Position numbers and translations under genes: made by a program | In this document: positions 39,379-41,580 of the stretch, in pieces | How positions within the stretch are numbered: position 1 is the first letter of the stretch | Layout of the letters: each line of letters opens with the position of its first letter | Assembly (NCBI GenBank): GCA_035656295.1 | Contig: DASRSU010000008.1 | Span: 8,110-72,109 of the forward strand | Direction of reading: 5' to 3' | Length of the DNA stretch: 64,000 nucleotides | From: Candidatus Bathyarchaeia archaeon | GTDB lineage: Archaea; Thermoproteota; Bathyarchaeia; 40CM-2-53-6 | The notes under the pieces: model-generated | Seen by the model: only the letters and a program-made list of their open reading frames with translations | What the model was told of the DNA's origin: nothing | Database searches by the model: none

Positions 39379-41580
39379 TTAGCGGGCTAGACCTTTCTCA
39401 GCAGCAAGTCTGACAAAGGCACGGCTTGCAGGAGTACCGATGTTCCCCGTTGGCTTTTCGGTCTCTTCCTTGAGCAGCTGCTTTGCGCGTTCGTAGTCGG
39501 CCCGTGGATCCACTTCGTAGGTTGAGTAGGGTAGAGCCGGTAGTGCTGTGATGCTCTTGGTGGGGACAGCATTGTCGTTTCCTACAGCGACGGTTTCTTT
39601 GGTCGACTGCTTTGAAACAATGTGTGCGAGTACCTTGTCCATTGTCTTGCCCCAGAGAATCGCTGGTGCTGATGCCTGGATTGGAATAATGTCGGGGTTG
39701 TCAGGAATTCTGCTCTGGTTTGCGGTAACAGGGTTGACTACTGCGCGTTGGCCAATTTGTCCTTGGCCGGCGGCTTTGCGTATCGGATCAATTCCCGCCT
39801 CTCCACCTTCTTCGCCGCCTTCCTCTTCCTCGTCTTCTTCCTCTTCTTCCTCGCCATCCTCCGCGGTATCTTCAGTTGTTTTCTTGGATTTCTTCGAGGA
39901 CTGTGCAATAGTTCTCCCAGTCTGGGATCCTACTGCAGAAGATGAGCCGGGCGGGTAGGGATTACCTGTTGGAGCTTGTGGGCCCGCACCTGGTGCGGTT
40001 GTAGTCGTTGCACCCATCATTGGTGTCTGGATCCGATTGTTGTATGGTGCGTCCTGGTAAGCTGGAGTAGTCTTGTTACCTGTCAATTGACCGGCTCCCA
40101 CTGCCTGATCAGCGTCCGTGAGAGATCCTGCCGCGACTGTTGGTACGACAGTCGTTGTGGCCTGGTTCTGACCAGAATCTCGTACTTGTTCGGGAGTCAT
40201 TTGTCCAACGTACGTCATTGCTGAATTGCTGCCTCCACGTTGTCCGGCGAGGGTTCCTAGTCCGACAGCTTGTCCTGCCAGACCCGTACTGATCGGGCCT
40301 GCTGGCATGCTAGTAGTGGACGCTGCGGTTACGATTCCTGCAGGAGTAAACGGTTGCGCGTCAGGGCCCGTTGCACTAGGCCCGGGTACTGTTCCAGGAA
40401 TCACTTCCTGAGCAACGCTCATGTTCTGTACTGCGCCTGGAGCTCCGCCTGCCATTGGTGCCGGAACGGTTTGAGATGTTCCATAGGATCCCTGTGGACT
40501 GTTGGGGCCAAGATTGCTGGGACCAGGAGATCCGCTTGCAGTTGCAGTCGTCACTGAACTCGCTGCTAGATACGGGTTCATGCTAGACGTGACGCCGGAT
40601 ACACTGACGGGGCCCGTCTGGGTTGCTGTTGGGACGCCGCTGAGAGATCCTATCGCAGTCATTGCACCGGCCCCGCTACCGGTAGGATTCTGCGGGTTGA
40701 CTGGAAAGGCTACAGTTCCTGGGGAGCTCGTTGTGGGCTGTGGCTGGATCCATACCTGATTGGTTCTAGATGTTGGTGTCGGAAGTCCTGGTCGACGATC
40801 ATTCTGTCCCCACTGCATCGGGGTGCCGCGGAGAATATCCGCTCGGGTACTGTTTTGTGGCGTGTCGCCTGGGGGCAGTGGTCCTTCGCGTGTACGATTC
40901 CGTGTCTTGTCTGCTTTCGCTATCTTTTCCGCTTCTTCCAGGGAAACCTCTGTTTCCTTTACTGGATATTTCGTGTTTTCACCATCCTCATGATGCTTGT
41001 ATGATTCCCGGATCTTGTTCAACTGGCTTACGTGGGCGTCCGGGAGTCCGGGGAAACCGGTCATGCTGATCTCTGCAGGAAGGAATTTCTTGATCATGAT
41101 TCCACCGTCTGCGCGGAAGTCGCCTTCTCCTTCGCCGCCGATCGAGACGCCCTTGATGAACGGGGGAATGATCCTGGATCCTTTCATCTTGGCGAATAGT
41201 TTCTCGTCCATGTAGCCGAGAGTGTCTAGCCATAGGCCTTCTTTCTGGCCGCCTGTGCTCGTCTCGTCAAGTCCGTACTTTGCGCCCGTTACAATGCCCG
41301 TGATGACGTCGACATCTTCGATGTTGTGGTCGAGAATGAACGGCTTACCAACGTAGAGTGGCGGTACTCCTTGGAGGAGCTCCTTGGTGTAGATCCTGTT
41401 GTTCAGCGACTTTGTCGGATACGCTGCCAGGATCCGTGCCTGGAATGGCACAAGACCCGGTGGGGCCCGTTCCTTGATCGCAATCTTGCCGGTTGACTCC
41501 CGGGGCTTGTCGAAGACAATCTCGAGAATCTTGCCAGCTTCATCCGCGAACTGTTCACGGGCTTCTGTGATGTTTTTCAA
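39379..41580 (-). CDS. prohead protease (HK97-family, S78-like) fused to a long disordered scaffold-like region
   Basis: The N-terminal ~170 aa (GKPFILDHN...GIVTGAKYGLDETSTGGQKEGLWLDTLGYMD) fits the HK97 prohead protease pattern. Then ~350 aa rich in T/G/P/S/A/Q, an acidic tract EDGEEEEEEDEEEEGGEEGGE, and a ~120-aa C-terminal region. Confidence 0.6.
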   Translation of the reverse strand: MKNITEAREQFADEAGKILEIVFDKPRESTGKIAIKERAPPGLVPFQARILAAYPTKSLNNRIYTKELLQGVPPLYVGKPFILDHNIEDVDVITGIVTGAKYGLDETSTGGQKEGLWLDTLGYMDEKLFAKMKGSRIIPPFIKGVSIGGEGEGDFRADGGIMIKKFLPAEISMTGFPGLPDAHVSQLNKIRESYKHHEDGENTKYPVKETEVSLEEAEKIAKADKTRNRTREGPLPPGDTPQNSTRADILRGTPMQWGQNDRRPGLPTPTSRTNQVWIQPQPTTSSPGTVAFPVNPQNPTGSGAGAMTAIGSLSGVPTATQTGPVSVSGVTSSMNPYLAASSVTTATASGSPGPSNLGPNSPQGSYGTSQTVPAPMAGGAPGAVQNMSVAQEVIPGTVPGPSATGPDAQPFTPAGIVTAASTTSMPAGPISTGLAGQAVGLGTLAGQRGGSNSAMTYVGQMTPEQVRDSGQNQATTTVVPTVAAGSLTDADQAVGAGQLTGNKTTPAYQDAPYNNRIQTPMMGATTTTAPGAGPQAPTGNPYPPGSSSAVGSQTGRTIAQSSKKSKKTTEDTAEDGEEEEEEDEEEEGGEEGGEAGIDPIRKAAGQGQIGQRAVVNPVTANQSRIPDNPDIIPIQASAPAILWGKTMDKVLAHIVSKQSTKETVAVGNDNAVPTKSITALPALPYSTYEVDPRADYERAKQLLKEETEKPTGNIGTPASRAFVRLAAEKGLAR
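39800..39880 (-). repeat. GAG/GAA-rich codon tract encoding poly-Glu within the protease-scaffold gene
   Basis: Plus strand tcctcttcctcgtcttcttcctcttcttcctc... Confidence 0.6.

Follow-up and report, generated by a model that had tools for sequence, protein, structure and literature searches.

The window analyzed in this study is a stretch of 64,000 nucleotides from a Candidatus Bathyarchaeia archaeon (assembly GCA_035656295.1, contig DASRSU010000008.1, positions 8,110 to 72,109). An open reading frame (ORF) of 733 amino acids (aa) with a TTG start is located on its minus strand (39379..41580, stop codon included), and its existence was confirmed. This gene is likely to encode a prohead serine protease (residues about 35-195) fused in one polypeptide to the internal scaffold of the virus. 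Its deposited record, HZY93805.1, is a "hypothetical protein" on a Candidatus Bathyarchaeia metagenome-assembled genome (MAG) contig of 1.05 Mb. On this reading, an unannotated protein family of tailed (pro)viruses, whose hosts are Bathyarchaeia and related uncultured organisms, receives a function, and a protease and scaffold gene missed by standard pipelines is identified.

Predicted protease domain

The protease domain (residues 35-195, 40996..41478; this and all other parts of the gene are on the minus strand) has an assemblin / HK97-type prohead protease fold, and fold comparison matched it with assemblin and T4 gp21. A variable N-terminal extension precedes it (residues 1-34, 41479..41580; pLDDT about 40). 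Of the alignments, A1 and A3 represent the close family, A3 consisting of 12 long members, and A2 is a distant set. Most relatives in A3 begin near residue 28. The protease family profile reached distant relatives at E values of 1e-7 to 5e-4. When 20 relatives were scanned, eight matched PF04586 (best E 3.3e-6) and 16 matched phrog_4523. A1 and A2 were aligned by hhalign with a probability of 99.9% (E 5e-32). Homology to S78 / PF04586 is demonstrable at the profile level through such intermediate sequences. A previous reading of the window from its letters and predicted ORFs (hereafter, the sequence-only reading) had matched the N-terminus to the HK97-family prohead protease; the assignment failed as a direct profile match and was upheld by the fold comparison and the transitive profile link.

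The S78 catalytic His/Ser arrangement was looked for and found. His85 (41326..41328, motif PFILDHN) and Ser146 (41143..41145, motif KGVSIGGEG) are the predicted catalytic residues; neither varies in A1, A2, or A3, and each aligns with its invariant counterpart (His with His, Ser with Ser) in the Peptidase_S78-matching relatives. His183 (41032..41034, motif PDAHV), which is invariant throughout A1 and A3 and not in A2, may be a third residue of the active site. Proteolysis would be carried out by His85 and Ser146.

The domain thus resembles the HK97 gp4-type prohead serine protease (MEROPS S78, Pfam PF04586), whose fold class is shared with T4 gp21 and herpesvirus assemblin. It differs from HK97 gp4 in having no direct PF04586 or PHROG protease match and in the additional His183 that is invariant in the close family. 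HK97 gp4 has about 225 aa and only a short C-terminal targeting tail, whereas about 540 aa come after the protease domain in the 733-aa protein.

Position of the gene in the head module

A tailed-virus module occupies about 23-48 kb of the window on the minus strand. Its order is terminase large subunit (TerL), portal-like gene, small ORFs, 733-aa gene, 324-aa gene, and tail genes, the last including HK97-gp10-like and minor tail/tube genes; two DNA methyltransferases are also present in the module. An archaeal host is indicated by the flanks, which carry genes for phosphoglycerate mutase, Pol IV, the PolD large subunit, and a thermosome subunit. The order TerL, portal-like gene, small ORFs, protease, and capsid-like gene is common to the window and the related loci L001, L003, L005, L006, L009, and L010. 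The window and these six related loci alike combine a protease and a putative C-terminal assembly region in one ORF adjoining the capsid gene.

The 324-aa gene (38132..39106, minus strand; 316 aa from the ATG at 39082) follows the 733-aa gene with no gene in between and encodes a putative HK97-fold major capsid protein. Its profile matched a single PDB entry, 8qpq (E 0.013), an "HK97 gp5-like major capsid protein" that agrees with HFTV1 gp19 in name and in its length of 396 aa. Its L001 ortholog matched Phage_capsid_4 at an E value of 2e-4, below the cut-off. The 324-aa protein is 80-81% identical to the neighbours of two relatives of the 733-aa protein, P0014 and P0063.

The suggestion of a protease-scaffold fusion, made in the sequence-only reading, fits both the position of the gene directly 5' of the capsid gene and the existence of relatives with a separate poly-Glu protein at that position. 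In L007 and L008, between the tailless protease (P0007, 286 aa) and the capsid ortholog, a low-complexity protein of 577 aa that has four poly-Glu tracts is encoded on its own. The accompanying idea of a scaffold of the delta-domain type was not supported: it is the protease gene that carries the low-complexity tail, and the gene in the capsid position forms an ORF of its own, which at 316-324 aa would be too short for an HK97-style delta domain.

Composition and predicted structure of the tail

Residues 293-560 (39901..40704) form an uncharged low-complexity segment without predicted secondary structure. T, S, G, P, A, Q, and N account for 77% of these residues and charged residues for 5%. 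Over residues 231-560, the composition is 14% G, 14% T, 13% P, 12% A, 10% S, and 8% Q, and charged residues are absent from the 40-aa windows spanning 281-360. The middle had been described as essentially devoid of hydrophobic and charged residues; this was overstated for hydrophobicity, with I, L, V, F, M, W, Y, and C at 19% of residues 293-560 (12-25% per 40-aa window). Forty stop-free stretches in the window reach 200 aa or more, and the 733-aa ORF is the compositional extreme among them: its maximum T/S/G/P/A/Q/N fraction per 150 aa was 0.79 (runner-up, 0.64; median, 0.45), and its minimum charged fraction was 0.01 versus a median of 0.20. GC content by codon position changes sharply within the gene (39901-41478): the protease part has a third-position value (GC3) of 0.70, and the low-complexity part has a GC3 of 0.44 and a second-position value (GC2) of 0.66.

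The acidic run noted earlier is present as a poly-Glu tract at E570-E594 (39799..39873; ..EDTAEDGEEEEEEDEEEEGGEEGGE), and the number of such tracts in relatives ranges from one to seven. Next comes a C-terminal module (residues 596-733, 39382..39795; alignments A3 and A5) that contains the islands DPIRKAAGQGQ, PD.IPIQA, and VPTKSIT. In the full-length AlphaFold model, residues 228-600 have no secondary structure (pLDDT about 30), and no helical, coiled-coil-like scaffold region was found among them. Low-confidence helices were modelled at 643-668. A confident helix-loop-helix (692-708 and 717-728, pLDDT 70-83) was placed at the end of the protein and is a candidate capsid-protein-binding element (residues 692-728, 39397..39507). 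The short ordered C-terminus expected from the sequence-only reading is present as a module of about 138 aa, of which only residues 692-728 were modelled with confidence.

Conservation of the tail

A3 shows conserved islands between hypervariable stretches. The first, VSLEEAEK (residues 212-219, 40924..40947), lies inside a predicted helix (214-227), and its L214 is invariant. In REGPLP (residues 231-236, 40873..40890), E232 is invariant and G233 and P234 are nearly so. A linear motif, RPGLPTPTSR..QPQPTTS..VNP (residues 263-296, 40693..40794), has the A3 consensus RPGLP.PT.R..QPQ.TTS..NP, with R263, P280, and T283 invariant and P264, P267, and T284 nearly invariant. In the C-terminal module, the A3 islands extend over DPIRKAAGQGQ (about 597-607), PD.IPIEARAFSLP (about 630-640), and VPTKSITN.AP (about 672-681), and the terminal A3 motif is RAW....PELL.VR.

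The window protein and P0014, a 725-aa protein from an NCBI MAG, are collinear end to end (43% identity, E 5e-126), and the single frame of the whole ORF aligns to P0014 over residues 2-720 (E about 1e-175). In the low-complexity part, the two proteins share 51% identity over 229 aligned residues; the local score was 475, compared with 105 +/- 13 for shuffled sequences (z=28). Such a score indicates that the low-complexity segments are positionally homologous and not merely alike in composition. The middle regions of other family members are unrelated (12-24% identity). They consist of repeated motifs, such as PKxPKxGxxTTxTPGFGxxxPSGTGxxDQ, followed by poly-Glu, and the internal repeat score reached 103 in P0019 against a null maximum of 45. 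The low-complexity segment of the window protein has internal repeats at the null level (score 41; P0014, 85).

Selection was evaluated with P0014 and P0063, which are 94% identical and come from two contigs of one assembly. The dN/dS was 0.064 for the protease, 0.067 for the linker islands, 0.073 for poly-Glu, and 0.047 for the C-terminal module. For the 260 codons of low complexity it was 0.069, with 44.5 synonymous and 9.5 non-synonymous differences. Given these similar values, the low-complexity segment is constrained as strongly as the enzyme fold in this pair. A polypeptide in the scaffold position that is mostly uncharged and of low complexity is hence under a constraint as strong as that on an enzyme fold.

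The possibility that the segment is an assembly artefact or a collapsed repeat, raised in the sequence-only reading, was checked, and neither was indicated by the sequence, an independent assembly, or the collinear relative P0014. An identical 733-aa protein was found in the independent Logan assembly of SRR12347814. A collapsed repeat was rejected at the sequence level, since only the poly-Glu codons form a short tandem array (39807-39861). The low-complexity part contains no stop codon in the gene frame and 5-15 in each of the other five frames, and the frequency of stop-free nucleotide shuffles was 5e-5. Coding on the opposite strand or in another frame was rejected on the basis of the stop counts, dN/dS, and the single-frame collinearity.

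Distribution of the family

In total, 56 relatives were detected, all of metagenome or MAG origin and none functionally annotated; those looked up in records are unnamed or "hypothetical". The IMG/VR search yielded one locus. A single weak match, probably spurious, came from the GTDB species genomes when these were scanned with the family patterns, and tblastn against 50,697 deposited phage and archaeal-virus genomes revealed no relative. Two papers on Bathyarchaeia (pro)viruses do not discuss the 733-aa protein (PMC10848311, PMC11705971).

About 18 cluster representatives have an N-terminal protease followed by a tail of 330-630 aa with one to seven poly-acidic tracts, and the fused low-complexity tail is therefore a family trait. 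T, S, G, P, A, Q, and N make up 44-64% of these tails, the window protein being the extreme at 0.64. The length and composition of the tail had been called unusual; the composition is extreme in the window, and the trait is shared by a whole rare family. In the sister subfamily P0003-P0008 (L007 and L008), the protease domain is C-terminal, behind a variable N-terminal extension that carries a conserved CMCGPR motif. In P0026, P0034, and P0038, the protease domain leads straight into a conserved stretch of about 90 aa with "EIHDGHARVVA", which seems to resemble a ParB/sulfiredoxin-type motif.

A zinc ribbon is recurrently tied to the protease gene, being found beside or inside it in several members. 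In the window, a 72-aa zinc-ribbon ORF (41577-41795, minus strand) shares 4 nt with the beginning of the 733-aa gene. The protease tail of some relatives itself contains a CxxC...CxxC ribbon, as in the 579-aa protein of L003 (5992-7731, DZR match) and in P0026, which carries "CSMCGGELKDGECGKCGM".

A candidate internal start in the relatives

About 25 codons past the protease domain, the sequence GAG-GTG-AA is identical in six independent lineages, in which GTG makes up 18-35% of Val codons (P about 1.6e-4). Among 30 conserved columns with 4/6-fold-degenerate codons, this is the only one with a single codon across the six lineages. Other members have ATG/Met at this column; P0002 (L001) reads AAGGAGGAAATGAACGTG. 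The conserved GTG/ATG suggests an internal start for a scaffold-only product in the relatives. GAGGTGA also resembles a Shine-Dalgarno core; no in-frame start was found 5-10 nt downstream in the sequences read, and a start codon is the preferred reading of the GTG. In the window copy, the column corresponds to residues 198-203, EDGENT (40972..40989, GAG GAT GGT GAA AAC ACG), and GGTGAAAA is displaced by one base.

Proposed role in head assembly

During procapsid assembly, the helix-loop-helix 692-728 would bind the HK97-fold capsid protein on its inner face, the portal, or both, and the linear motifs 263-296, 597-640, and 672-681 may share in this binding. The low-complexity segment (about 270 aa) and poly-Glu would fill the procapsid interior as a flexible, DNA-repelling core that replaces the usual helical coiled coil. 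After assembly, the protease would cut the tail, the fragments would leave, and DNA could enter. In intact relatives, the internal in-frame GTG/ATG would probably yield an excess of scaffold-only product.

Viral genes in which a prohead protease is fused to its scaffold, or nested with it, are already established, and the 733-aa gene, with an HK97/S78-type protease fused to and perhaps nested with a scaffold, would add an unannotated variant. P2 gpO, with 284 aa, has a protease N-terminal domain (1-141) and a scaffold C-terminal domain (195-284) (PMC7552001). By analogy, the 733-aa protein appears to combine an N-terminal protease, a middle, and a C-terminal assembly region in one polypeptide, encoded beside the capsid gene. 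It differs from gpO in its length (733 versus 284 aa) and in its middle, which consists of a low-complexity segment of about 370 aa and, in addition, poly-Glu. The lambda C/Nu3 and herpes simplex virus 1 (HSV-1) UL26/UL26.5 genes are nested protease/scaffold genes (summarised in bioRxiv 10.64898/2026.09.13.751334). In HFTV1, ribosome profiling and proteomics revealed that translation beginning in frame within the protease gene gp17 yields the scaffold, and the gp17 tail is described as disordered and helix-rich (bioRxiv 10.64898/2026.09.13.751334). The invariant GTG/ATG after the protease domain of the relatives is similar to the C/Nu3, UL26/UL26.5, and gp17/gp17.5 arrangements, if it does serve for internal initiation; the internal start of these nested systems is absent in-frame in the window copy. 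HFTV1 gp17 (480 aa) also resembles the 733-aa protein in its globular N-terminal domain, acidic tract, and helical C-terminus and in belonging to an archaeal tailed virus. Its tail contains 29% Asp/Glu, whereas residues 293-560 of the window protein are 5% charged and modelled without helices.

The gene shares its position upstream of the capsid gene with P22 gp8, phi29 gp7, SPP1 gp11, and the HK97 delta domain. In the model, the terminal helix-loop-helix of the 733-aa protein is comparable to the coat-binding domain of P22 gp8. Classical scaffolds of tailed phages and herpesviruses are alpha-helical, with predicted coiled coils (PMC10275583); the tail in the window is mostly non-helical and of low complexity, and its fusion partner is the protease instead of the capsid protein. 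The scaffold moiety would thus be new in being a long, non-helical polypeptide that contains poly-Glu tracts and whose low complexity is under selective constraint. Should the nested GTG start prove real, the gene organisation of lambda, HSV-1, and HFTV1, with a protease plus an internal scaffold, would reach one more, highly divergent lineage of archaeal viruses, and an ancient common design of Duplodnaviria head assembly would gain support.

Several results weigh against a protease-scaffold fusion. The scaffold role of the tail is argued from gene position and from analogy. Pfam and PHROG gave no match, even at E<=10, for the whole 733-aa protein or its N-terminal 233 residues, and nothing relevant for the C-terminal 138 aa; PDB sequences searched with the protease domain by phmmer and by profile gave chance matches only. 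HFTV1 gp17 showed no homology to the family profile A1 (hhalign probability 0.1%). The 577-aa protein of L008 had no significant similarity to the fused tails (BLASTP E 0.33, hhalign 2.8%), and it is therefore a positional and compositional analogy only. The search for a stand-alone C-terminal module returned four matches, apparently 5'-truncated gene calls on short contigs. At the nested-start column, the window copy has no in-frame ATG, GTG, or TTG, and in the relatives the conserved GTG could be part of another nucleotide-level element. The AlphaFold model was built on a shallow alignment of 12 sequences. FoldIndex gave +0.17 for residues 293-560 and did not class them as unfolded, because the segment is uncharged. 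Of the disorder predictions, the low pLDDT of the model thus stood and the charge-hydropathy index gave no support, and the claim of disorder was reduced to "no predicted structure". The label of a classical charged disordered region suits residues 293-560 less well than that of an uncharged stretch of low complexity for which no structure is predicted.

State of the window copy

The provirus in the window is probably defective, since its terminase, portal-like, and AlwI-type genes are split; consensus indel errors in the MAG are the alternative. The TerL gene is in two reading frames (46568..47930, minus strand), and the portal-like gene, whose L001 and L003 orthologs match Phage_portal below the cut-off, is in three (44116..45928, minus strand). 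Both genes are intact and single-frame in L001, L003, L005, and L006. The last portal break recurs in the Logan assembly. The AlwI restriction endonuclease gene (PF09491; 23044-24751, minus strand) is represented by two overlapping ORFs that match the N- and C-terminal parts, and it adjoins a DNA methyltransferase gene (phrog_18146, 24781-26145) at the edge of the provirus. With terminase and portal genes frameshifted, mass spectrometry of induced virions, as proposed in the sequence-only reading, is unlikely to succeed for the window copy. The practical message for the window is that its provirus probably no longer functions.

The window copy of the 733-aa gene may accordingly be a recent relic. 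The chance that it is a non-functional one, an as yet unbroken ORF in a decaying provirus whose exact sequence, with the longest T/G/P/S bias and a deviant C-terminus, partly reflects relaxed selection, is in our view a little short of even. Besides the broken terminase, portal-like, and restriction genes, several features of the copy itself agree with this view. It is without a C-terminal island of about 45 aa, "AWN..K.P...K..VR", which is kept in the other ten full-length relatives aligned and was not hidden in other frames of the window. Its terminal motif departs from RAW....PELL.VR, the in-frame GTG/ATG of the relatives is absent, and its internal repeat is degenerate when compared with that of P0014. 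In contrast, the 2.2-kb frame is still open (P about 5e-5 for the low-complexity part alone), the catalytic and linear motifs are all retained, and the adjoining capsid gene is 80% identical to the genes of the relatives; moreover, the frameshifts could be assembly or strain-mixture errors in the MAG. The relic view bears on this copy alone and does not conflict with the protease-scaffold reading of the family.

Other readings of the tail

A more specific form of the scaffold reading is that the tail is a new scaffold type, largely non-helical, of low complexity, and multivalent, which organises HK97-fold capsomers by many weak contacts or condensate-like behaviour. It is a tentative proposal with an outside chance of being correct. 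The motifs involved would include RPGLP.PT.R..QPQ.TTS, the PKxPKxGxxTTxTPGFGxxxPSGTG repeats that precede poly-Glu in relatives, and the SLTDAAQ.VG.G repeat. The disordered CsoS2 scaffold of alpha-carboxysomes is comparable in principle. If this holds, the dN/dS of 0.07 reflects sequence-encoded material properties or binding registers, and the core departs from the rigid helical coiled coil with which tailed phages and herpesviruses are credited.

A protease fused to a packaged internal protein is a less probable alternative, and we regard it as unlikely. Such a cargo or ejection protein would be targeted to the capsid by the protease domain and then retained or injected into the host; T4 internal proteins and P1 Dar proteins are the models. 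The strong purifying selection on the low-complexity part could mean a function beyond space-filling. In addition, prohead proteases and capsid-targeting sequences carry cargo into heads, as does the capsid-targeting signal of P1 DarB (PMC9024508), and HFTV1 virions keep both gp17 halves at roughly 1:1 (bioRxiv 10.64898/2026.09.13.751334). However, the capsid gene (316-324 aa) would be too short to include a delta domain, and the interval from the protease gene to the capsid gene holds no other candidate for a scaffold. The tails also vary greatly in length and sequence among relatives (12-24% identity), which is unusual for an effector. Furthermore, a terminal helix-loop-helix is typical of coat-protein binding by scaffolds, including P22 gp8 and the herpesvirus scaffolds.

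A mucin-like O-glycosylated surface domain, such as a capsid decoration or adhesion module, is very improbable: archaea O-glycosylate Thr-rich stretches of surface proteins and the composition (14% T, 10% S, 13% P) would suit this idea, which the sequence-only reading had raised, but the hydrophilic N-terminus (MKNITEAREQFADEAGK...) has no signal-peptide-like hydrophobic stretch, the segment is covalently joined to a protease type that acts inside cytoplasmic procapsids, poly-Glu and a helix-loop-helix at a scaffold-typical position come after it, and poly-Glu-rich modules substitute for it in relatives.

Other genes of the module

A 229-aa ORF (42807-43496, minus strand) between the portal fragments and the protease gene matched PHROG 9522, "major tail protein" (E 1.3e-7). 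It is oddly placed for a tail gene and may encode an Ig-like or decoration protein. The second DNA methyltransferase gene (33126-33965, minus strand) is within the tail module beside a tail-tube-like gene, and the same placement was observed in L005 (17514-18320) and L006 (15483-16310). GCA_030157145.1 contains two head-module copies that are 94% identical (L005 and L006) and a more distant member, P0020 (L011); several related viruses or proviruses therefore coexist in that sample.

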